Positions 1,763 to 23,812 of a stretch of DNA of 64,000 nt are shown here, one piece after another. Under the pieces are notes generated by a model, which worked only from the letters and a program-made list of their open reading frames with translations, ran no database searches and had not been told where the DNA came from. The stretch comes from an uncultured Acidobacteriota bacterium (GTDB taxonomy: Bacteria; Acidobacteriota; Terriglobia; Terriglobales; Acidobacteriaceae): NCBI GenBank assembly GCA_963702345.1, contig CAVPCD010000009.1, positions 87,529-151,528 of the forward strand, read 5' to 3'. Made by a program: the position numbers and the translations under genes. Numbering within the stretch: the first letter of the stretch is position 1; the number at the start of each line of letters is the position of its first letter.

Positions 1763-4700
1763 TTAGAGCGCGGCCACTTTGGATTGTTGCAGGACTTCAG
1801 CGGCGCCGCCGACCCCGTCGCGGTAAGAAACGTACCGTCCCGAAATCGCGGGGATGCGCTCACCGGGAACGACAATCCCTACCAGGTTCAGAGGGTCGGC
1901 AGCAGAAATCGTCACCAGCTCACCTGTTGGCGGAAGTTTTCGCGTAGCGCGTAAGGACTCAACTGCGACCGGCAACGCAAACTGTTCGCCAAGGAAACCG
2001 TCGACGAACTTGCCGCCACGAATTTCGCCACGTGCTTCCAGACGCCGGAAGGCCAGCTGCAGCTCTCGCCACTTCGGCAAATTGCTTTCGCGAACCAGAA
2101 GATCGCGGAAAACTACTCCATACCGTTTCAATAACATCCAGCAAACTGACTCAGCCCGGCGTTCGTGCTCGACCGCAGAATCCGCGTGCAGGATTGCCCA
2201 CCGACCGGAACTGTGCCGGGGACGAGCGGATTTACCGTTGCCTTGGCCGGAGCGGCGCTTGGGATCAATTAAAGCTCGAAGATTATCGAACCCGTCGGCT
2301 GTGACCAGCCCGGCCGCCACCAGTTCCCATAATCCGGTTTCAATCTCAGCTTTCAATTTGCCGGTGGCGCGCACGATGTCTGCAAAAAACGAAGCTCCGC
2401 GCTGGCGCAGAAGTTCGAAGACCTGATTAGCCACCGGGCTGAGTCCGTGCGCGTCAGCCAGTGAAGCATGGGGCGCCATCCAGTCTGAGTCTTCGCGCAC
2501 GAAAAATGTGATCGGAGCTACGCTTGTGGGAATCACTCGACGGCGATTCGGTTGATCTCCATTAGAAGATTCAAGCGTGGCCGGATGCGGCGAAAGCCTT
2601 CCCCATCCAACTGCACCGGTGAGGCAAAGCTGGTCGAGCCATTTGGGATCGTAATCCGCAATTCTTCTTGAGAGCACCTGTCGTTCCCATGCATTCGCGG
2701 GGACTTCAAAGCCTTCAAGTTGGCGCAACACTTCCAATGTCGCCCGTTCGCCCTGAAGCTGGGATTCTGGCGCGATGTGCTGCCAGCGCAACAGCCAGCG
2801 CATGAATTGTGCCGCGCTGACCGGTTGAATCTGCTTGCGCAGGGTCGCGACGGTCAGGCGGTGAATTCGAGCTAACAGTCGGCGATCGCACCACTCTGTT
2901 TCCTGCATGCTGGGATCGGTGAATTTTCCGCGGAGGATCGCACCGCTGGCTTCCATCCGCAGCAATGCCTTTTCGATCTCAGGTGCGGGAACGCCTAATG
3001 AACCTGCCAGTGCGTGCGGGGTCACCGGACCGATGTGCCCCATCCAGCCGGTGACCATGGCGAGGATAGCGTCGTCAGTAGAAGGAGCTAATTGCGGAAT
3101 GTCAGCGGGAGCGGTCTCGAAAACTGCATTTGGAAAAATTGCCGAGAAGGCTCTGGCTCGTTCAGCGGCAATCCAGTAAGTTTGATCACCACTCCGGGCG
3201 CTCACAGCCCGCTGAGCGTGACCCAATCGCTCGAAATAAAGTTCCCAGCCCGATGCGCCGGCGAACGTGTGGAGACAGCCGCCCGCGGCTGTCTGGTCGA
3301 GCTGCGCTCGACGATCTGCTTCAACCAGGGAGAAACCTCGTTCAGCTTCGCTGAACCGGACAGTCGAGGGCGGCTGTCCCCACATTGGCGAAGGCATGGG
3401 AATTGGCAACGCAACCAAGGTGTGCAGCACATCGTGGAGTTCATCGGCGTCGCGCAGATCTGGCCATGCTTCCGCGCGAACCTGCTCGATTGCGCCCGGA
3501 TCGAGCTTGCCGACTTCCTCCAAAACTGATTCAGGAAGAATGCGCCGCATCTCAACCGCGCGGGCGCGCCGTTCTTCTAGCGGAGCGTCATCGAGATAGG
3601 CGTACGGGTTCGCATTGAGTATCTCGTGAGAGAACTGTGACGGCACCGGCGTATCGACGGCAACACAACGAATGCTTCCATCTTCCATGCGGCGCAGCAA
3701 ATCGCGCACCCCATCGATATCCATGGCTTCGGTGAGCACGTCTTTCATTACTTCCTTCACCAAAGGATGATCGGGAATCTTGATGTCGCCCTCGATGTTT
3801 TCCTGGCAAGCGGCGACGTCGGGAAAAACCGAAGCCAGCAAATCATCGGAGCGAATGCGCTGAATTTGCGGCGGAACTTTTTTGCCGCCCTGAAAGCGAA
3901 GCAGAGCCAGAGACCGGTTTGCGTCCCAGCGCCAGCGGGTCCCGAAAACCGGCGCGGCCAGGGCGGCTTGCTCAAGCACCGACTGAACGCTATCAGCATT
4001 TAGGAAATGAAAAACATCGGCGAGGGGGAAACTGTGCTGCTCGGCTAGGGCGATGTTGAGGCCGTTGTCGGTTGCGGCCGCCTGTAATTCGAAGTTGAAA
4101 CTACGGCAGAAGCGCTTGCGAAGCGCCAGTCCCCAGGCTTTGTTGATGCGGGCGCCAAACGGGGCGTGGATGACCAACTGCATGCCGCCACCTTCATCGA
4201 AAAAGCGCTCGGCGACGATGGTGCTTTGCGTGGGGACGGCGCCAAGGACAGCACGACCTTCGAGGATGTATTGAATAGCTTGCGACGCGCCGGATTCATC
4301 CAGCCCACATTGTTCAGCCAGCCATGAAATAGTTTCGGCGACTTGGGGCATCATTGGCGAAAGTGCAACCGGCGAAATTCCCGGCAAGCGCTCACTGATT
4401 TCACGGCGCAGTTCGGCGACATGCAGCGACAGCTCTTGCGTGCGCGCTGGCGCCTCTCCCAGCCAGAAAGGAACCGTAGGAGGCGCTCCGTGCGCATCTT
4501 CCACCAGCACACGGCCTGACTTTCCTTCTACTCGGCGAATGCGCCACGAGGTGTTGCCGAGCAGCACGATGTCGCCTGCGTTGCTCTCGACCGCGAAATC
4601 TTCGTCGAGAGTTCCAACGATTCCGCCCTCAGGCTCGGCAACCACGGTAAACAATGCAGTTTCAGGAATCGCACCACCGCTGGTGATCGCAGCCAATCGG

Positions 4701-6343
4701 GCTCCGCGGCGTGCACGCAGTTTGCGATTCACCCGGTCGTGATGAAGATATGCTCCGTATCGTCCTCGGCGCGCGGCAATGCCTTCGGAAAGCATTTCAA
4801 CGATGGAGTCGAAGAGTTCACGCGAAAAATTGTGGTAGGGATAAGCCCGTTTGACCAGAGCAAACAGCTCATCTTCATCCCAGCCCGGATCGTCTTCAGA
4901 AGGACCTTGTGGCTCGGACACTCTTGTCCCAGCAGTCGATAACTCCAACGCTGCCTGGGACGCTAAACTCGATAGACTTCCATTTTCGGTTGTCGATGAC
5001 CCCTCGGTGTTCTCGGACAGGAGTGTCCGAGCCACACGACCATTGCCGCCGGGAGCATGTCTCCGAATCACGTGGCTAGTGCTGGTCGCACACGTGGCGA
5101 CGATCTGTTGCGCCATCACATCCAGCGGAGAATCGGGGATGATCAAGCGATCCAGATCGCCCTGGCGAATGGCGCGAACCAGCGAGGCGCATTCGAGCAA
5201 GTCGTCTCTGGTGGTAACAAACAACCGTCCCTTAGGTACAGCGCCGCGCCAGTGGCCTGAGCGTCCCACTCTTTGAAGGGCGACGGCAATCGCCCGCGGG
5301 GAACTGATCTGAATTACCAGATCAACCGTGCCAATATCGATTCCAAGCTCCAGTGAGGCGGTTGCGATCAAGACCTTGATCTTTCCTTCTTTCAGTTTTC
5401 TTTCGGCTTCCAGACGCAACCGGCGCGAGAGACTGCCGTGATGCGCGCCAACGTTTTCTTCGCCGATGCGCTCCGCCAGGTTATGCGCAACCCGCTCGAC
5501 AAGGCGGCGGGTGTTGACAAAGACCAAGGTCGAGCGGTGCTCCTCCGAAAGCTGCACGATGCGGTCGTAAATTTCATCCCACATCTCATTGCTGGCCACT
5601 GGGCCGAGCAAAGTTGCTGGAATTTCAACCGCGAGATCGAGCTTGCGCTTGTGGCCAATGTTGACGATTTCTGGATCGGGTCGGCCATTGCCAGCAAGAA
5701 AATGCGCAACTTCTTCGATCGGCTTCTGCGTTGCCGATAGCCCGATGCGGACGGGAGAGCGGTAGGTCAACGCTTCCAGCCGTTCCAGTGAGAGGGCTAA
5801 GTGCGCGCCGCGCTTGTCGTCAGCCACGGCGTGGATTTCGTCGACGATGACCGTCTCGACGTCGCGAAGAATGGCCCGGCTTTTTTCAGCCGTGAGCAGG
5901 ATGTAAAGAGACTCAGGCGTAGTGACCAGAATATGCGGCGGGCATTTCAGCATCGCCCGGCGTTCTGGGGCGAGCGTATCGCCGGTTCGGACGGCGGTGC
6001 GAATCTGCGGCATCAGCAGCCCGCGTTCGCCAGCCATTTGGAGAATCTCCCCGAGCGGAACTTCGAGATTCTTCTGAATGTCGTTGCCGAGGGCCTTCAG
6101 CGGCGAGATGTACAGAACTTCAGTGCGGTCGTGGAGTTCGCCGGCGAGAGCCTTGCGAACCAGGCGATCAATGCAGGCAAGGAAAGCGGCAAGAGTTTTT
6201 CCGGAGCCGGTTGGGGCGGAAATCAGCGTGGTCCGACCCGAGAGAATATGCGGCCAGCCCAGCTCCTGTGGCTCGGTAGGGGTGCCGAATTTAGCAGTAA
6301 ACCATTCGGCGACGAAAGGATGAGCCCAGGAGAGAGCAGACAT
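1763..6343 (-). CDS. lhr: Lhr-like large ATP-dependent DEAD/DEAH-box helicase (full-length, about 1500-aa class)
   Basis: 1526-aa ORF. Motif I APTGSGKTLAAF and motif II VIVDEIHAV, followed by a long DEAD/H-associated C-terminal extension. Size matches Lhr. Carries two palindromic in-frame insertions (see repeat features). Confidence 0.9.
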   Translation of the reverse strand: MSALSWAHPFVAEWFTAKFGTPTEPQELGWPHILSGRTTLISAPTGSGKTLAAFLACIDRLVRKALAGELHDRTEVLYISPLKALGNDIQKNLEVPLGEILQMAGERGLLMPQIRTAVRTGDTLAPERRAMLKCPPHILVTTPESLYILLTAEKSRAILRDVETVIVDEIHAVADDKRGAHLALSLERLEALTYRSPVRIGLSATQKPIEEVAHFLAGNGRPDPEIVNIGHKRKLDLAVEIPATLLGPVASNEMWDEIYDRIVQLSEEHRSTLVFVNTRRLVERVAHNLAERIGEENVGAHHGSLSRRLRLEAERKLKEGKIKVLIATASLELGIDIGTVDLVIQISSPRAIAVALQRVGRSGHWRGAVPKGRLFVTTRDDLLECASLVRAIRQGDLDRLIIPDSPLDVMAQQIVATCATSTSHVIRRHAPGGNGRVARTLLSENTEGSSTTENGSLSSLASQAALELSTAGTRVSEPQGPSEDDPGWDEDELFALVKRAYPYHNFSRELFDSIVEMLSEGIAARRGRYGAYLHHDRVNRKLRARRGARLAAITSGGAIPETALFTVVAEPEGGIVGTLDEDFAVESNAGDIVLLGNTSWRIRRVEGKSGRVLVEDAHGAPPTVPFWLGEAPARTQELSLHVAELRREISERLPGISPVALSPMMPQVAETISWLAEQCGLDESGASQAIQYILEGRAVLGAVPTQSTIVAERFFDEGGGMQLVIHAPFGARINKAWGLALRKRFCRSFNFELQAAATDNGLNIALAEQHSFPLADVFHFLNADSVQSVLEQAALAAPVFGTRWRWDANRSLALLRFQGGKKVPPQIQRIRSDDLLASVFPDVAACQENIEGDIKIPDHPLVKEVMKDVLTEAMDIDGVRDLLRRMEDGSIRCVAVDTPVPSQFSHEILNANPYAYLDDAPLEERRARAVEMRRILPESVLEEVGKLDPGAIEQVRAEAWPDLRDADELHDVLHTLVALPIPMPSPMWGQPPSTVRFSEAERGFSLVEADRRAQLDQTAAGGCLHTFAGASGWELYFERLGHAQRAVSARSGDQTYWIAAERARAFSAIFPNAVFETAPADIPQLAPSTDDAILAMVTGWMGHIGPVTPHALAGSLGVPAPEIEKALLRMEASGAILRGKFTDPSMQETEWCDRRLLARIHRLTVATLRKQIQPVSAAQFMRWLLRWQHIAPESQLQGERATLEVLRQLEGFEVPANAWERQVLSRRIADYDPKWLDQLCLTGAVGWGRLSPHPATLESSNGDQPNRRRVIPTSVAPITFFVREDSDWMAPHASLADAHGLSPVANQVFELLRQRGASFFADIVRATGKLKAEIETGLWELVAAGLVTADGFDNLRALIDPKRRSGQGNGKSARPRHSSGRWAILHADSAVEHERRAESVCWMLLKRYGVVFRDLLVRESNLPKWRELQLAFRRLEARGEIRGGKFVDGFLGEQFALPVAVESLRATRKLPPTGELVTISAADPLNLVGIVVPGERIPAISGRYVSYRDGVGGAAEVLQQSKVAAL
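3268..3384. repeat. REPIN/RPE-like palindromic element 1 (117 bp), in-frame inside lhr
   Basis: Inverted termini TGTGGAGACAGCCG (3268-3281) and CGGCTGTCCCCACA (3371-3384). Four consecutive stem-loops: AGACAGCCG-cccg-CGGCTGTCT at 3273-3294, GTCGAGC-tgc-GCTCGAC at 3296-3312, GTTCAGC-ttc-GCTGAAC at 3340-3356, and GGACAGTCG-aggg-CGGCTGTCC at 3358-3379. 117 bp equals 39 codons, with no stop in the lhr frame. Confidence 0.6.
4908..5036. repeat. REPIN/RPE-like palindromic element 2 (129 bp), in-frame inside lhr
   Basis: Perfect 16-bp inverted termini TGTGGCTCGGACACTC (4908-4923) and GAGTGTCCGAGCCACA (5021-5036), extendable to 22 bp with one mismatch. Each arm holds a small hairpin: GGACA-ctct-TGTCC and GGACA-ggag-TGTCC. 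129 bp equals 43 codons. Confidence 0.6.
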
Positions 6344-6521
6344 CAGGATATTTTAATTCTTCGATTATAGTTTCGCAAATTATTCGCCTGAGCATAGGCT
6401 TTACAGAGCACCGTCACCGATCCGGCTTCGCGGCATCTTTATTACGGCAGCAATTTTCTACTCGCCCAGCGGTTCATCGCTGTCGCTGATATTTAGGCCG
6501 CGTATTCCACAGCAGTTTCAC

Positions 6522-7556
6522 ATGGTTTGCACCATGCGAGTTGCAATGTTGATGGAAAAGGTTCCTCTCGGGCCTATTTTCCTATTGCGGAGAGAAGCTC
6601 AGGATTTCGATAATACGCGTAGTTTCACCGACAGCGTGTATCGATACAGCCGAGAAGATCTCATTCGAATCCTGCAGGTCAGCCCGCGGCAACTGCTTGC
6701 GTGGGAAAAAGCCGGGCTGCTTGCCAGCGCCGAAAGTTATAACTTCTTTGATCTTTTGCAGGTGAAGAAAGTTCGTGACTTGTGCGCGCGCCATGTGCGT
6801 CCCATCGAGATTCGCCAATCACTGACTGCGATGCAGCAACAGGCGGCGGGAATGGAGAATCCGCTGCTCGAGGCCAATGCTTCGACCAGTGGGCGACATC
6901 GGGTGGCTTTTCGGCATGAAGGCCGGCTCTTGGAGCCGATCGCCGGGCAATTCATGTTCGATTTTTCTCCGGGGGAAAAAGTTATCGCCAGCGTTCCTGT
7001 AACCAGAAGTTCTGCCGCCCCTCAGGAACCAGCGGGTGCCGATGTCGCGGAATTGTTTGCTCGCGGCGTTGCGCTGGAAGATGACCCGCGGAGCCAGCTG
7101 CAAGCGATTGCTGCTTATGAACGCGTTTTGCAGCTTGATCCGGAGCACGCGGCTGCGCACATAAACCTCGGCACGCTTTATTACAACCGTCAGGATTATC
7201 GCGCGGCGGAAGATCATTATCGCGAGGCTTTGCGGATTGATCCGCGCTATGCATTGGCGCACTTCGATCTTGGCAATGTGCTGGATGAAACTGGCCGTAT
7301 CACCGATGCGGTGGAAAGTTATTTGACCGCGCTGCGGTTGGCGCCTACTTATGCCGATGCTCACTATAACCTGGCGCTGGCTTACGAAAAGATGCGTGAG
7401 CCGCGCAAAGCTCTCAAGCACTGGCAGTGTTACGTGAAGCTCGATGGTACAGGTCCGTGGGCGACTCACGCACGCACTCAGATAAAGCGGATTCTGAAAA
7501 CTGATCCGCTCAGGCTGGTTGTTGGCGGAAATGCCCCGATCCAAATAGAAAGTTAG
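6522..7556 (+). CDS. MerR-type HTH domain protein with C-terminal TPR repeats
   Basis: 344-aa ORF. N-terminal YSREDLIRILQVSPRQLLAWEKAGLL resembles a MerR-family HTH. The C-terminal half has tandem TPR-like repeats (AHINLGTLYYNRQDYRAAEDHYREALRIDP, ALAHFDLGNVL, ADAHYNLALAYEKM). True start uncertain; several in-frame Met near the N-terminus. Confidence 0.6.
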   Translation: MVCTMRVAMLMEKVPLGPIFLLRREAQDFDNTRSFTDSVYRYSREDLIRILQVSPRQLLAWEKAGLLASAESYNFFDLLQVKKVRDLCARHVRPIEIRQSLTAMQQQAAGMENPLLEANASTSGRHRVAFRHEGRLLEPIAGQFMFDFSPGEKVIASVPVTRSSAAPQEPAGADVAELFARGVALEDDPRSQLQAIAAYERVLQLDPEHAAAHINLGTLYYNRQDYRAAEDHYREALRIDPRYALAHFDLGNVLDETGRITDAVESYLTALRLAPTYADAHYNLALAYEKMREPRKALKHWQCYVKLDGTGPWATHARTQIKRILKTDPLRLVVGGNAPIQIES

Positions 7557-7621: not shown

Positions 7622-8797
7622 ATGCCGGAAGCTGCTCTGCAGAATTTGACTGCTACCCCGCTTACGTCCCTCTCCGAAGACGAAATTCTTTTTCGGGAGA
7701 ACGTGCGTCAGTTTGCGGAAGAAAAAGTTCGTCCGCTTGCCAAAGAAATGGACGAGAAGGGCGTTTTCGACAAGTCTCTGGTCGAACAGTTCTTTCAGCT
7801 TGGTCTGATGGGAATTGAAGTTCCGGAGCAGTTCGGCGGTGCGGGAGGGAAGTTTTTTGAGGCGATCCTGGCGGTGGAAGAGCTTTCGCGCGCCGATGCC
7901 TCCGCTGGCGTGGTGGTCGATGTGCAGAACACGTTGGTGAATAATGCGCTGGTGCGCTGGGCGAATCCCGAGCAGAAGAAGAAATATTTGTCGCGCATGG
8001 CCTCAGACACCGTCGGCGCATATGCGTTGAGTGAGGCCGGATCGGGCTCAGATGCGTTCGCGCTGCAGACCAGGGCAGACTTGAAAGGCAGCGATTACGT
8101 TCTGAACGGCCGCAAGCTTTGGATCACCAACGCAAAAGAGGCGGGAATCTTTGTGCTGTTTGCAACGGTCGATCCTTCGGCCGGATATAAGGGAATTACC
8201 GCTTTCATTATTGAAAAGGAATTTCCTGGGTTCACTGTAGGGAAGAAGGAAGACAAGTTGGGCATCCGCGCTTCCTCGACCTGCGAATTGATTCTGGAAG
8301 ACTGCCGAGTTCCTAAAAGCAATGTGTTAGGCGAAGCTGGCAAGGGATACAAGATCGCCATTGAAACGTTGAACGAAGGCCGCATCGGCATTGGCGCGCA
8401 GATGCTGGGCGTCGCGCGTGGAGCGTGGGAATACGCGGCGAAGTATGCGCAAGAGCGCAAGCAATTTGGCAAGAGCATTGCTGAATTTCAGGGAATCCAA
8501 TTTCAACTGGCGCAAATGGCGACCGAGATCGAAGCGGCGCGGTTGATGGTGTATAACGCGGCCCGCATGAAAGATGCCGGTGCGCCATTTGTAAAAGAGG
8601 CCGCGATGACGAAATTGTTTTGCTCGCAGGTGGCCGAGCGAGTGACCTCGCTGGCGATCGAGATTTATGGGGGCGCCGGTTTTACGAAAGACTATCCCGT
8701 GGAGAAATACTGGCGTGACGCGAAGATTGGCAAGATTTACGAGGGCACATCGAACATGCAGTTGGCGACGATCGGTAAGCTAGTACTGGGAAAATGA
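7622..8797 (+). CDS. Acyl-CoA dehydrogenase (short/branched-chain type)
   Basis: 391-aa ORF with ACAD-typical segments: GAYALSEAGSGSDA, the RKLWITN-like region, and C-terminal IYEGTSNMQ. Confidence 0.9.
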   Translation: MPEAALQNLTATPLTSLSEDEILFRENVRQFAEEKVRPLAKEMDEKGVFDKSLVEQFFQLGLMGIEVPEQFGGAGGKFFEAILAVEELSRADASAGVVVDVQNTLVNNALVRWANPEQKKKYLSRMASDTVGAYALSEAGSGSDAFALQTRADLKGSDYVLNGRKLWITNAKEAGIFVLFATVDPSAGYKGITAFIIEKEFPGFTVGKKEDKLGIRASSTCELILEDCRVPKSNVLGEAGKGYKIAIETLNEGRIGIGAQMLGVARGAWEYAAKYAQERKQFGKSIAEFQGIQFQLAQMATEIEAARLMVYNAARMKDAGAPFVKEAAMTKLFCSQVAERVTSLAIEIYGGAGFTKDYPVEKYWRDAKIGKIYEGTSNMQLATIGKLVLGK

Positions 8798-8835: not shown

Positions 8836-8855
8836 CGCGGGCGAAGGCGCCCGCG
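8836..8855. terminator. GC-rich hairpin between convergent ACAD and pruA genes (possible bidirectional terminator or REP remnant)
   Basis: CGCGGGCG-aagg-CGCCCGCG, an 8-bp stem, lying 39 nt after the ACAD stop and 8 nt from the pruA stop. No clean U-tract. Confidence 0.35.
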
Positions 8856-8862
8856 CCACACG

Positions 8863-10467
8863 CTATATAATTTTCTCTCCAATCGACTTCGCTTGGGAGA
8901 AAAGCAACAAATAATCCGGCCCGCCTGCTTTGGAATCTGTTCCCGACATATTGAAGCCGCCGAAGGGATGCGCACCGACGATTGCTCCAGTGCACTTGCG
9001 GTTGATGTAGAGATTGCCGACGTGGAACTCGCGCATGGCCAGCTCAATCTTGTCGCGTGATCCGGTATAGACCGCGCCAGTTAGACCAAACTCGGTGTCG
9101 TTAGCGATATCGAGCGCTTGCTCAAAGTTGCGCGATTTAATCACCGCCAGCACCGGGCCGAAAATTTCTTCCTGCTCGAGTTTTGATTTCGGTTGAATAT
9201 CTGCAATCACGGTCGGTTGAACGAAATAGCCTTCGCCGCAGTCAGTTGCTCGATTTCCGCCGGTGATGATCCGGCCTTCGCGCTTGCCGATATCGATGTA
9301 GTTCATGATCGACTTCATCGAGCCTTCGTTGATGACCGCGCCCATGTTGGTATTGGTGGCGGGGTCTCCGATGGTGAGCCGCTCCACGCTGTCTTTCAAG
9401 CGCTCCAGGAATTTTCCGTAGATGCGTTCATCGACGATGACGCGGGAACAGGCAGAACATTTTTGTCCCTGAAACCCGAATGCAGCGGCGGCAACGCCAT
9501 TAGCTACTGTCTCAAGATCGGAGTCAGCATCGACGATGATCGCGTCCTTGCCACCCATCTCAAGGATGGTGCGTTTGATCCAAATCTGGCCAGGAGCGAC
9601 GTCAGCGGCAACTTTGTTGATGCGCAGGCCGACTTCACGTGATCCGGTAAACGCGATGTAGCGGGTTTTCGGGTGCGCGACCACGGCGTCGCCAAAACTC
9701 GCTCCAGCGCCGGGGCAGAAGTTCACCACGCCCTCGGGCATTCCCGCGGCTTCCAGAATCTCAATGAATTTTGCCGCGATGGTAGGCGAATCGCTCGACG
9801 GTTTGAGAATTACGGTATTCCCGCACACGATCGATGCCAGCGTCATGCCGGCCATGATTGCGGCAGGAAAGTTCCACGGCGGAATCACAGCTCCCACCCC
9901 GAGAGGGATATAGAAAAAATGATCGATTTCGCCCGGCAATTGCACCGGAGCTTTTGCGTGGCCAAGGCGTTGCGCCTCGCGTGCGTAGAATTCGCAGAAG
10001 TCGATGGTCTCAGCGATGTCGGCGTCGGCCTCGCCCCAGTTTTTGCTCACTTCATAGACCAGCCATGCCATCAGTTCAAATTTGCGCTCGCGCAATATGT
10101 CGGCAGTGCGGAATAGCAAAGATACGCGCTCTTCCAACGGGGTGCGGCTCCAATGCTCGTAGGCTTTCAATGCCGCCTGCATGGCCGGCTCTACGTGTTC
10201 CTTGCCGGCTTTCTGGTGAATACCAACAACTTCTGACGGGCGCGCGGGATTGAGGGAACGTATCTTTTCCGACGTCTTCACCCGGTGGCCTCCGATGATC
10301 AGGTCGTACTCGCGACCTAATTGTCCGCGGACCTTGTCCAGGGCGGCGCGCATCTCTCTGGCAACATCCCATTTCGTGAAATCCAGCATCGGCTCATTGC
10401 GAAATGGGCTTTGCTGTGCGCGAGTACGCGGACGAATCGGAGCTTCAACGGTTGCCATGGATTGCAC
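8863..10467 (-). CDS. pruA: L-glutamate gamma-semialdehyde (1-pyrroline-5-carboxylate) dehydrogenase
   Basis: 534-aa aldehyde dehydrogenase. FRNEP N-terminus, PWNFP, EMGGKDA and FGFQGQKCSACSR (catalytic Cys), co-linear with the Thermus-type P5C dehydrogenase as I recall it. Confidence 0.88.
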   Translation of the reverse strand: MQSMATVEAPIRPRTRAQQSPFRNEPMLDFTKWDVAREMRAALDKVRGQLGREYDLIIGGHRVKTSEKIRSLNPARPSEVVGIHQKAGKEHVEPAMQAALKAYEHWSRTPLEERVSLLFRTADILRERKFELMAWLVYEVSKNWGEADADIAETIDFCEFYAREAQRLGHAKAPVQLPGEIDHFFYIPLGVGAVIPPWNFPAAIMAGMTLASIVCGNTVILKPSSDSPTIAAKFIEILEAAGMPEGVVNFCPGAGASFGDAVVAHPKTRYIAFTGSREVGLRINKVAADVAPGQIWIKRTILEMGGKDAIIVDADSDLETVANGVAAAAFGFQGQKCSACSRVIVDERIYGKFLERLKDSVERLTIGDPATNTNMGAVINEGSMKSIMNYIDIGKREGRIITGGNRATDCGEGYFVQPTVIADIQPKSKLEQEEIFGPVLAVIKSRNFEQALDIANDTEFGLTGAVYTGSRDKIELAMREFHVGNLYINRKCTGAIVGAHPFGGFNMSGTDSKAGGPDYLLLFSQAKSIGEKII

Positions 10468-22117: not shown

Positions 22118-23812
22118 TCATTCTTCTTCGAACAACATCTCCGACAGCGCCGCCCCTGCCGGAACCATCGGATAAACATTTGCCTCAGGCGCACAGTCGA
22201 ACACCAGCAACTCCGGCTCCGGCGATCGTAGAAAGCGCTCTAACGCGTCTGCCGTGTCTTCAGTGACCGGATATTCGCGCATCACATCTTCCTGAACGCG
22301 CACTGCATTGATGCGATAAGCTTTCGCGATTTCCACAAAATCCGGATTGTCGCTCAAATCAGTCTCAGCATAATTTCGCTGGTAGAAAAGTTGCTGCCAT
22401 TGGCGGACCATGCCCAGATATTTGTTATCGACAATTACCATTTTGATGGGAAGATTCAGGCGGCGCACGGTGGCCAGTTCCTGAATGTTCATCTGGAAGC
22501 CGCCGTCTCCAGATACGCAGAGCACGGCCGCATCCGGTTTCGAAAGTTGAACTCCGACCGCGGCCGGCAAAGCGAAGCCCATCGAACCCAGGCCACCGGA
22601 AGTGATAAAACCACGCGGCGAGGCCGAGCGATAACGCTGCGCCGCCCACATCTGGTGCTGGCCTACGTCGGCGATGACAACGCTGTTTTGCGTAAGGCGC
22701 CCGAAAAGTTCGTCCAGAAAGCGAATAGTCGGTTGCGAGAGTCCGCGCGGATCGAGTTCCGCCCGATCTTCCCCGCAAGCTATGGCCCTCCATTCATTCC
22801 AACTCGGCAACTTCGCGCCGCGCACTTTCTCGTGGAAGGCAGGAATTGTTTTTGCGAGATCTCCAATGATTGGGAGTTCGCACGCGCGAACTCGATCCAG
22901 TTGTGCCGGATCAATTTCAAAATGTACGATTTTGGAATGGGGCGCAAAACGGGTGGGGTCGCCCGTGACCCTGTCATCCAAACGCGCGCCGAAAACCAGC
23001 AGCAGATCGTTTTCATGCAACGCCATGTTGGCGGCGCGAGTGCCGTGCATGCCGACCATGCCCAGATAATAAGGAGCCTCTGGTTCAACCGCGCCCAGTC
23101 CGTGGACTGTGGCGAAAGTAGGGATGTTGAGGTCATCCAGCAAACTTCGCAATTCCGATATGGCGCCTGAAAGTTTCGCGCCTGCCCCGATCAATGCCAC
23201 CGGACGCTCGGCCTTTTGCAGCAACGAAATCAGCTTGTCGCCAAATGCCGCTTCCAGGGCCGAATCCGACGGACGCGGCTTCGGCGTGAACTTCACCGGC
23301 CCGGCAAATTCCATTTTTGCTTTCAGAAAATCGGTCGGGATGTCTATGACTACCGGTCCCGGACGACCTTCGCGTGCCCAATAGAAAGCTTCAGCGATTA
23401 CTGAAGGGATTTCGTCGATCGTCTTCACCAGCCTGCTCCACTTTGTTAGAGAGAGAGTCAACCCGAAAACGTCGGTTTCCTGAAAAGCATCGGAACCAAT
23501 CAACGAGCTGCGGACTTGGCCGGTAATGCAAACCAGCGGAACCGAATCCATTTTTGCATCGGCGATGCCGGTGACCAGGTTTGTCGCGCCCGGGCCGCTG
23601 GTGGCAATAGCCACGCCAACTTTTCCTGTGGCGCGCGCATGGCCTTCAGCCGCAAAAACCGCGCCCTGCTCGTGACGCGTGAGCACGTGACGAATGCCGC
23701 TGCCGTCTAGCGCATCATAAAGCGGCATAATCGCGCCGCCTGGATAGCCGAAGACCAGGTCGACGCCCTCAGCCCGGAGGCACTGCAAAAATATTTCCGC
23801 GCCTCTAAGCAT
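22118..23812 (-). CDS. ilvB: Acetolactate synthase (acetohydroxyacid synthase) large subunit
   Basis: 564 aa ThDP enzyme. [14 protein letters not shown], the [10 protein letters not shown] region and the [14 protein letters not shown] ThDP motif. The start overlaps the ilvC stop by 8 nt (ATGCTTAG). Confidence 0.92.

Follow-up and report, generated by a model that had tools for sequence, protein, structure and literature searches.

The stretch of DNA analysed here (64 kb, hereafter the window; contig CAVPCD010000009.1, positions 87,529 to 151,528, from an uncultured bacterium of the Acidobacteriaceae) encodes an Lhr helicase whose gene, lhr, contains a palindromic segment of 129 nt that preserves the reading frame. 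This segment is very probably a doublet of two inverted repetitive extragenic palindromes (REPs), members of a Terriglobales family partnered by a REP-associated tyrosine transposase (RAYT), which sits in-frame in a loop of the Lhr protein. A REP is recognised by its anatomy, a short palindrome preceded immediately on its 5' side by a GT[A/G]G head, and is present singly or as an inverted doublet (PMC8266576; PMC3733652, the latter cited here and below for portions of its text and supplement). The source organism was read within the 64-kb window, and the dispersal of the family was established in related genomes.

The palindromic segment of lhr

The gene and the parts of the doublet are as follows. 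The doublet resembles the REP doublets forming hairpins (REPINs) and the bacterial interspersed mosaic elements (BIMEs) described in other bacteria.

1763..6343 (-): lhr, Lhr helicase, 1526 aa; DEAD/Helicase_C/WHD_Lhr/DEAD_assoc architecture in orthologues
4906..5038 (no strand): probable REP doublet (REPIN/BIME-like), two inverted REP copies and a spacer, in-frame in lhr
4908-5036: TGTGG...CCACA core of the doublet, 129 nt, the extent given in the earlier note on this DNA
4908..4932 (+): left arm, REP on the + strand; GTGG head at 4909-4912; hairpin CTCGGACA-CTCT-TGTCCCAG, 7/8 stem
4933..5011 (no strand): spacer, 79 nt
5012..5036 (-): right arm, REP on the - strand; GTGG-CTCGGACA-CTCC-TGTCCGAG, perfect stem
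about 5049..5074 (-): putative third REP copy, decayed; sense strand CACGTGATTCGGAGACATGCTCCCG, encoding SHVIRRHAP; based on protein and DNA alignments

The two arms are 25 nt each, pair at 23 of 25 positions (92%) and are separated by 79 nt. The perfect 16-bp inverted repeat described in the earlier note, which had been made from the sequence without database searches, was recovered as TGTGGCTCGGACACTC at 4908-4923 (+) and 5021-5036 (-), once per strand and at no other place in the window with up to three mismatches. An inverted-repeat scan of the 64 kb (12-nt seed, 400-nt span) gave the doublet as its sole substantial match, the other two matches being short self-overlapping palindromes. The mini-hairpin reported for each arm is also present, with a 7/8 stem on the left and an 8/8 stem on the right (read on the + strand, a perfect 8-bp CTCGGACA-GGAG-TGTCCGAG), and GTGG directly abuts the stem in both arms. 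The family consensus, CGTGTGG...CCACACG, adds two bases per side and extends the doublet to 4906-5038, with one mismatch at 4907. A further match in the window, at 859-870, lacks a hairpin partner and was discarded as a chance match.

The 129 nt make up 43 codons in the frame of minus-strand lhr, and their translation is the one first proposed, RVARTLLSENTEGSSTTENGSLSSLASQAALELSTAGTRVSEPQ (including GRVARTLLSENTEGSSTTENGSLSSLASQAALELSTAGTRVSEPQG); on the lhr sense strand the right arm encodes RVARTLLSE and the left arm ...AGTRVSEPQ. Both strands of the doublet fold far more stably than shuffled controls. The folding energy of the 129-nt element is -63.3 kcal/mol as RNA (z = -4.5) and -31.4 kcal/mol as DNA (z = -5.0), and in neither case was any of 200 shuffles as stable.

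Alignments across the site indicate that the segment is an insertion. The closest database Lhr is 91% identical to the window protein, and the source names attached to the nearest Lhr proteins place the organism in Acidobacteriota/Terriglobales. Among the 60 closest orthologues, many that are 88-89% identical run from ...ATCATSSG straight into VQGADDPGWDEDELF without the segment, while others have a segment whose ends are shared (RVARTLLSE ... ARTGVSEPH) and whose middle varies; the DNA of four empty and five filled lhr alleles agrees with this presence and absence at the protein level. In the Mycobacterium smegmatis Lhr structures 5v9x and 7lhl the alignment extends to ...QQIVATCA (chain residue 473) and resumes at DEDELF (residue 478), leaving four residues at the insertion point versus about 69 in the window protein. 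The site is a short loop in the Pfam WHD_Lhr region, a domain named in the orthologues. Across 110 Lhr orthologues the loop measures 10-78 aa; 48 of them bear the REP peptide signature and 26 have a short loop. The orthologue alignment suggested in the earlier note has thus yielded both filled and empty alleles and bears out the proposed insertion; the segment is not conserved in the Lhr of another phylum, the M. smegmatis protein having four residues at this point. The translated Ser/Thr/Glu-rich stretch is probably unstructured. An AlphaFold model of residues 240-700 (38-sequence alignment; mean predicted local distance difference test score, pLDDT, of 48) does not bear on this in either direction, as the insert is a coil with a pLDDT of about 30 and its neighbours look likewise.

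The repeat family and the transposase linked to it

A scan of one genome per species for GTGGCTCGGACA-N4-TGTCC returned at least 119 loci. By our arithmetic, about 70 chance matches are expected for a collection of that size, so isolated matches (Streptomyces, Bradyrhizobium, etc.) carry no weight. Most of the matches listed come from metagenome-assembled genomes (MAGs) of Acidobacteriota/Terriglobales, with up to six loci per MAG, and related MAGs have at least 5-6 exact-pattern loci each. Their consensus is (C)CGTGTGG[C/G]TCGGACA-YTCY-TGTCCGA[G/C]. The REP unit is about 27 nt long and comprises a GTGG head and a hairpin, CTCGGACA-YTCY-TGTCCGAG, with an 8-10-bp stem and a strand-specific YTCY loop. 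It occurs singly, in arrays and as head-out inverted doublets of 55-213 bp, the doublet spacing across the family ranging from 55 to about 300 bp.

The recurring part of the window element is limited to its arms of about 27-30 nt. At least 12 other genomes contain REP copies that match the right arm at every position over 29-30 nt, and the 79-nt spacer, searched in all fetched loci (127 others), had no homologue outside lhr orthologues. As to the copy census proposed in the earlier note, copies of the arms are dispersed in many related genomes, in intergenic positions and in other genes, and the inverted repeat is no unique local artefact. What has to be abandoned is the description of the arms as terminal inverted repeats of a 129-bp mobile unit: they are two inverted REP copies, and the 79-nt middle lies outside the repeated unit. 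In the strict sense of a REPIN, the whole doublet with its spacer is replicated at several loci, which is not the case for the window doublet, and its position inside lhr departs from the extragenic location typical of REPs. It does form the long hairpin expected of inverted doublets (z = -4.5 to -5.0), and doublets are common in the family.

The recurrence across genomes effectively refutes a chance palindrome, a local inversion-duplication or an assembly artefact. The doublet is the sole copy in the window, as such an origin would predict, but its arms match repeats over 29-30 nt in other genomes, independent assemblies carry a doublet in the orthologous lhr (L113, L117, L120, L123, L127) and no shuffled sequence folded as stably; we give this explanation next to no credence.

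The link to a transposase comes from a Terriglobales MAG (locus L036), in which a 167-aa gene lies between two doublets of about 123 bp with the same arms. The two doublets are alike through their spacers, as judged by eye, and both the C-G and the G-C stem variants occur inside one of them. The encoded protein scores 86.8 bits on the NCBIfam model NF047646 REP_Tyr_transpos (REP-associated tyrosine transposase; cut-off 80), passes Pfam Y1_Tnp (PF01797) and has the HVH and YIRQNP motifs; it is a TnpA-REP, an HUH/Y1 tyrosine transposase related to those of the insertion sequences (IS) IS200/IS605. Its homologues also abut REPs in L018 and L108. A further 80 metagenomic loci were compared whose RAYT homologues share 64-100% identity with this protein. 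A REP is found within 300 nt upstream in 69 of 73 cases and within 300 nt downstream in 74 of 76; of the 69 loci with both flanks available, 63 have REPs on either side of the gene and all have a REP on one side or the other. This arrangement of REP and RAYT in the relatives is a REPtron in the published sense, as described together with intragenic REPs, a documented minority (PMC3733652).

The REPs of the RAYT loci are also informative about structure. Exact GTGG, preceded by a conserved GT, was found in 242 of the 271 family matches near RAYT genes. In this set, unselected at stem positions 4, 5, 22 and 23, the pair 4/23 is G-C in 224 copies, C-G in 16 and A-T in 4, and the pair 5/22 is T-A in 148, A-T in 64 and G-C in 34, with 97-98% pairing at both. 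The two outer stem pairs covary, and the structure of the REP is under selection. The window arms represent the C-G variant at pair 4/23.

These data also bear on a classical miniature inverted-repeat transposable element (MITE), that is, a derivative of an IS with a DDE transposase, moved by cut-and-paste through terminal inverted repeats and leaving target duplications. The formal 25-nt terminal inverted repeats, the TGTGG...CCACA (TG...CA) ends and the MITE-like size would suit such an element. However, the repeated unit is the arm of about 27 nt, which also occurs singly and in arrays, at doublet spacings of 55 to about 300 bp, and which forms a hairpin of its own, with covarying pairs and a strand-specific loop. 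No consistent direct repeat was seen at the junctions of five filled lhr alleles, whose flanks have diverged by a few bases. The neighbouring transposase is a Y1/HUH RAYT in all 69 loci in which both flanks could be read, and only Y1 RAYTs turned up beside the repeat in about 1.2 Mb of repeat-bearing loci, in both cases with RAYT queries and without a search for DDE transposases. A MITE is accordingly extremely improbable. At one locus (L060) paired doublets 1.8 kb apart bracket a 572-aa open reading frame (ORF), by eye a trehalase-like glycoside hydrolase.

Two further observations concern the distribution of the repeat. MAGs from other phyla each contain several copies of the GTGG-CTCGGACA-N4-TGTCCGAG core, arranged in short doublets or arrays whose flanks are specific to the lineage, and these copies are therefore real repeats and not chance matches. 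The MAGs concerned belong to Fimbriimonadales (L002, L023, L038, L047, L049), Cloacimonadaceae (L019, L039, L073), Calditrichaeota (L010, L026, L050) and Clostridia/Ruminococcus together with the unclassified bin172 (L003, L007, L064, L065, L079, L081, L105); no RAYT was seen in the 8-kb blocks around the copies. In addition, at least 10 Acidobacteriaceae genomes (L016, L020, L022, L035, L048, L083, L084, L092, L095, L102) have a single REP followed by ...AAAGCTCACCACGAAG... at apparently the same intergenic position, which precedes a gene beginning with MTNLTTITAKPAP... by about 90-100 nt, so that a REP is kept at one orthologous intergenic site across species.

In-frame copies and the history of the lhr alleles

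The doublet in lhr is one of many copies that lie within genes. In 56 of the 169 copies in the fetched loci the repeat stands in a stop-free frame with at least 80 codons on each side, a share that is not a genome-wide estimate, as the loci were chosen for containing the repeat. Host genes checked with NCBIfam encode PcrA/UvrD (with a doublet), UvrC, ClpB, a B12-dependent ribonucleotide reductase, an ABC-F ATPase, arginyl-tRNA synthetase, ParB and MnmE (two sites), and leucyl-tRNA synthetase (LeuRS) carries an in-frame REP in three genomes, at two sites. These in-frame copies in genes of related genomes are of the kind that the earlier note had proposed to look for in the source genome. The copies are translated in at least four frames (VARTLLSE/VGRTFLS, SDKNVRAT, RTGVSEPH, CGSDTPVR), and the sequence of the REP, read directly, is free of stop codons in all six. 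Some proteins have several insertions: the ParB encoded at 5332-6495 (-) of L013 has three REP-derived stretches (ATRTGMSEPHG, SRAGAPAPHE, TRTGVSAPHG), and there is a LeuRS with insertions at two sites about 380 residues apart and an MnmE with two (L055, L053).

The earlier note ascribed the preserved frame to selection on frame-preserving insertions. Selection does leave multiples of three inside genes, but there is no such bias in the element: the lengths of 72 RAYT-adjacent doublets are spread evenly over the three remainders on division by three (26/27/19). Frame preservation inside genes is therefore a survivorship filter acting after insertion and not a property of the element. The RAYT-adjacent doublets cluster at about 120-135 bp head to head, and the window doublet, measured by the same rule, is 127 bp.

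The history of the insertion in lhr can be judged from the filled alleles. The window spacer is homologous to those of orthologues P0001, P0002 and P0012 (z = 4.5-5.3; score reached by 0 of 500 shuffles), and comparisons among all four alleles gave z values of 4.5-10.6 (again 0 of 500). The four alleles, with their homologous spacers, therefore descend from one insertion. Identities among them are as follows.

Spacer: 54-73%
Third codon positions of flanking lhr: 55-70%
Arms: 78-100%

The window spacer itself is 54-55% identical to the other three, and the third codon positions of the flanking lhr sequence are 56-70% identical in these same pairs. The spacer thus drifts at about the neutral rate, without visible constraint at the protein level. 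The arms stay near the family consensus, with conservation that extends to synonymous positions, and the left arm is identical at 27 of 27 positions between the window and P0012. Filled alleles are intermingled with empty ones in a neighbour-joining Lhr tree (P0012 vs P0013, P0002 vs P0006, P0017 vs P0026). Some orthologues have two or three tandem heads (HVGRTF...GNGRVARTF), and the stretch at about 5049-5074 of the window, aligned with the extra HVGRTF/HVARTF heads of P0017, P0028 and P0029, is probably a decayed third REP copy. Both the tandem heads and this decayed copy suggest that the loop was hit more than once.

The same comparisons speak to two explanations in which the host keeps the segment. 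If the 43 residues were a host-selected protein insert, a functional linker or interaction module of acidobacterial Lhr with an incidental palindrome, one would expect its peptide ends to recur and its arms to be better conserved than its spacer. Both are observed, the ends RVARTLLSE ... RTGVSEPH being found at the site in about 48 of 110 orthologues. However, the closest orthologues lack the segment, its middle changes at about the neutral rate and with indels, the arm conservation includes synonymous positions, and the same nucleotides also turn up between genes, on the flanks of RAYT genes and, read in four or more frames, in unrelated proteins, which makes a protein module very improbable. 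An exapted nucleic-acid structure, with the hairpin kept for an effect on mRNA (stability, translational pausing) or as a protein-binding site on DNA, would account for the very stable fold (-63 kcal/mol) and for arms conserved above the neutral rate, and extragenic REPs have been reported to affect mRNA stability and termination (PMC3733652). Against it, an Rfam scan of 3000-5400 gave no family match, a scan of 4600-5400 detected no promoter-like or terminator-like signal, the arms of P0001 and P0002 have decayed without compensating changes between them, and many close relatives lack the segment. We regard an exapted structure as improbable.

The preferred explanation remains a RAYT-partnered REP doublet, which, by analogy with studied systems, would have been mobilised by the RAYT. 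The steps proposed are based on the mechanism of TnpA-REP and IS200/IS605 (PMC8266576; PMC6006769). An ancestor of the lineage would have gained the doublet in a short loop of the winged-helix domain of Lhr. The RAYT would recognise the folded single-stranded REP, with the GTGG head as a guide, cut at a nearby dinucleotide and join the strands without target duplication. The insertion would survive, given the lack of stops in six frames, a net length that is a multiple of three and a loop tolerant of extra residues; a benefit to Lhr does not have to be assumed. REPs may land beside existing REPs and so hit the loop repeatedly, as the decayed copy beside the doublet and the tandem heads in orthologues suggest. 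GTAG and GTGG are known as guide tetranucleotides for TnpA-REP cleavage, and a GTGG guide redirected one TnpA-REP to CC sites (PMC8266576). Two empty alleles read GGTGT^ACAAGG and the window core runs GG...CC within GTGT-GG...CC-ACA, a fit to cleavage at CC that is suggestive only.

Several observations weigh against this explanation. The window has just one doublet of the family, and tblastn of its 64 kb with the L036 RAYT and with an approximate E. coli RAYT found no RAYT gene. The spacer occurs at no other locus, and transposition of the complete doublet in one piece is presumed. A few bases of flanking sequence also distinguish filled from empty alleles, which blurs the exact junctions, the target sequence and the apparent absence of a target duplication. 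The arms are kept better than neutral drift predicts, which a purely passive fossil does not explain. Finally, we know of no demonstration to date of transposition by acidobacterial RAYTs.

A more dynamic picture can be drawn, in which a RAYT that inserts and excises seamlessly would keep re-seeding the same surface loops in proteins of repair and translation (Lhr, UvrC, PcrA/UvrD, LeuRS, ParB) and create a reversible in-frame length polymorphism. Such active turnover would explain why near-consensus arms adjoin a neutral spacer, why filled and empty alleles are intermingled on the Lhr tree and why decayed heads stand in tandem. We consider it unlikely; if true, the REP arms in Terriglobales genes would not be passive fossils.

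Other REP families, known systems and significance

The earlier note had drawn attention to another palindrome in the same gene, called element 1, as a relative of the one described above. Element 1 is the same kind of feature, and the two share the GTGG head and the general anatomy of a REP doublet; they belong to different REP families. The window contains two features of this second family.

3268..3384 (no strand): element 1, doublet of the second REP family; GTGG-[A/G]GACAGCCGCC..., in-frame at a second variable lhr loop
22081..22108 (-): single extragenic copy of the element-1 family, just past the stop of the minus-strand ORF 22118..23812

Element 1 of the window encodes MWGQPPSTVRF...AAGGCLH, the family form being MWGQPPSAVRF...RTAEGGCPH, and the only hit of the Rfam scan, a sub-threshold hairpin match to a miRNA family, lies there. 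Eleven heads of this family were counted in 77 kb of relatives' lhr loci (L120-L127), and it is rare near the RAYT genes studied. A third, GTAG-headed family (back-translated, GTAG-GGACGGGCG..., peptide HVGTGALARPVERSS) is present at the same two Lhr loops in other orthologues (P0015, P0025, P0031, P0039, P0040 and others) and in-frame in UvrC, ABC-F and ribonucleotide reductase (L027, L106, L116). Since it occupies the same loops, the two Lhr loops accept several REP families. Close to the 3' end of the minus-strand ORF 8863..10467, and outside it, lies another GTGG-headed hairpin, GTGGCGCGGGCGCCTTCGCCCGCG, at 8836-8859 (-), which may represent a further REP family. Overall, a generic GT[AG]G plus hairpin occurs 8 times in the window versus 0-7 times in shuffled controls, a slight excess. 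As for the neighbourhood of lhr, a MazE/PIN toxin-antitoxin pair lies between mutL and lhr in several orthologous loci (L120, L124-L127) and is absent in others (L121, L122); upstream of lhr the window carries other ORFs, 6522..7556 (+) and 7622..8797 (+).

The system resembles the REP/BIME/REPIN elements and REPtrons of Escherichia, Pseudomonas and Stenotrophomonas in its imperfect palindromes of 20-40 nt with a 5' GT[A/G]G head, its single, inverted-doublet and clustered copies flanking a single HUH/Y1 gene, and its strand-specific hairpin. It differs in having GTGG rather than GTAG, in its acidobacterial host, in doublet spacers that are long (mostly 80-300 nt) and unconserved between loci, in the large share of intragenic, in-frame copies (in a biased sample of loci) and in a RAYT known from sequence alone.

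Rickettsia palindromic elements (RPEs), of about 100-150 bp, are found in-frame in housekeeping genes, where they are tolerated as an extra peptide, and to our knowledge have no associated transposase. Likened by description and not by sequence membership, they are an analogue of the window doublet in a different lineage. The IS200/IS605 elements (IS608, ISDra2) share with the present family a related HUH/Y1 enzyme, subterminal hairpins in single-stranded DNA, a 5' guide tetranucleotide, the lack of target duplication and seamless excision; their transposase lies inside the moved element, whereas the repeats described here are non-autonomous and the RAYT is present once per locus.

Intragenic REPs have a precedent. 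REPs and REP dimers wholly inside ORFs are known in Opitutus, Thauera, Xanthomonas and Rickettsia, where they frequently sit in genes for DNA repair or replication, for helicases, for tRNA synthetases and for ASPIC/UnbV proteins, some of these genes being hit twice (Di Nocera et al. 2013, PMC3733652). The GTAG/CGTC REPs of that study are alike in being singles or dimers within ORFs, where they encode about 8-80 residues, including in repair genes (uvrA, recB); the present REP family, host clade and lhr do not appear in these portions of the text and supplement, and the portions of the supplement contain no GGACA-type REP and no acidobacterial entry (PMC3733652). The same source describes distinct acidobacterial tyrosine transposases flanked by long inverted repeats, the 'TIRYT' of T. 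saanensis, K. versatilis, A. capsulatum and G. mallensis, in which a Y1 gene likewise lies between long repeats that are in part self-complementary and of which one or more belong to a repeated DNA family (PMC3733652). Compared by description, the flanks reported here differ in that they can be broken down into REP doublets with GTGG heads, and the NCBIfam model for REP-associated tyrosine transposases recognises the protein. Our literature search found no description of the present REP family or of in-frame REPs in Acidobacteria. In-frame REPs being already known, the window doublet does not represent a new kind of system.

The significance of these findings lies in a concrete and testable REP-RAYT system outside Proteobacteria, in an abundant and poorly studied soil phylum; its REP consensus is defined and includes a GTGG guide head, and its RAYT loci number in the hundreds. 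It accounts for odd low-complexity inserts in acidobacterial proteins (VARTLLSE, SDKNVRAT, RTGVSEPH, HVGTGALARPVERSS, WGQPPSAVR...AEGGCPH), and such REP-derived inserts can mislead annotation, alignment, the assignment of orthologues and structure prediction. It also traces the preservation of the reading frame in the host genes to selection after insertion rather than to the element.

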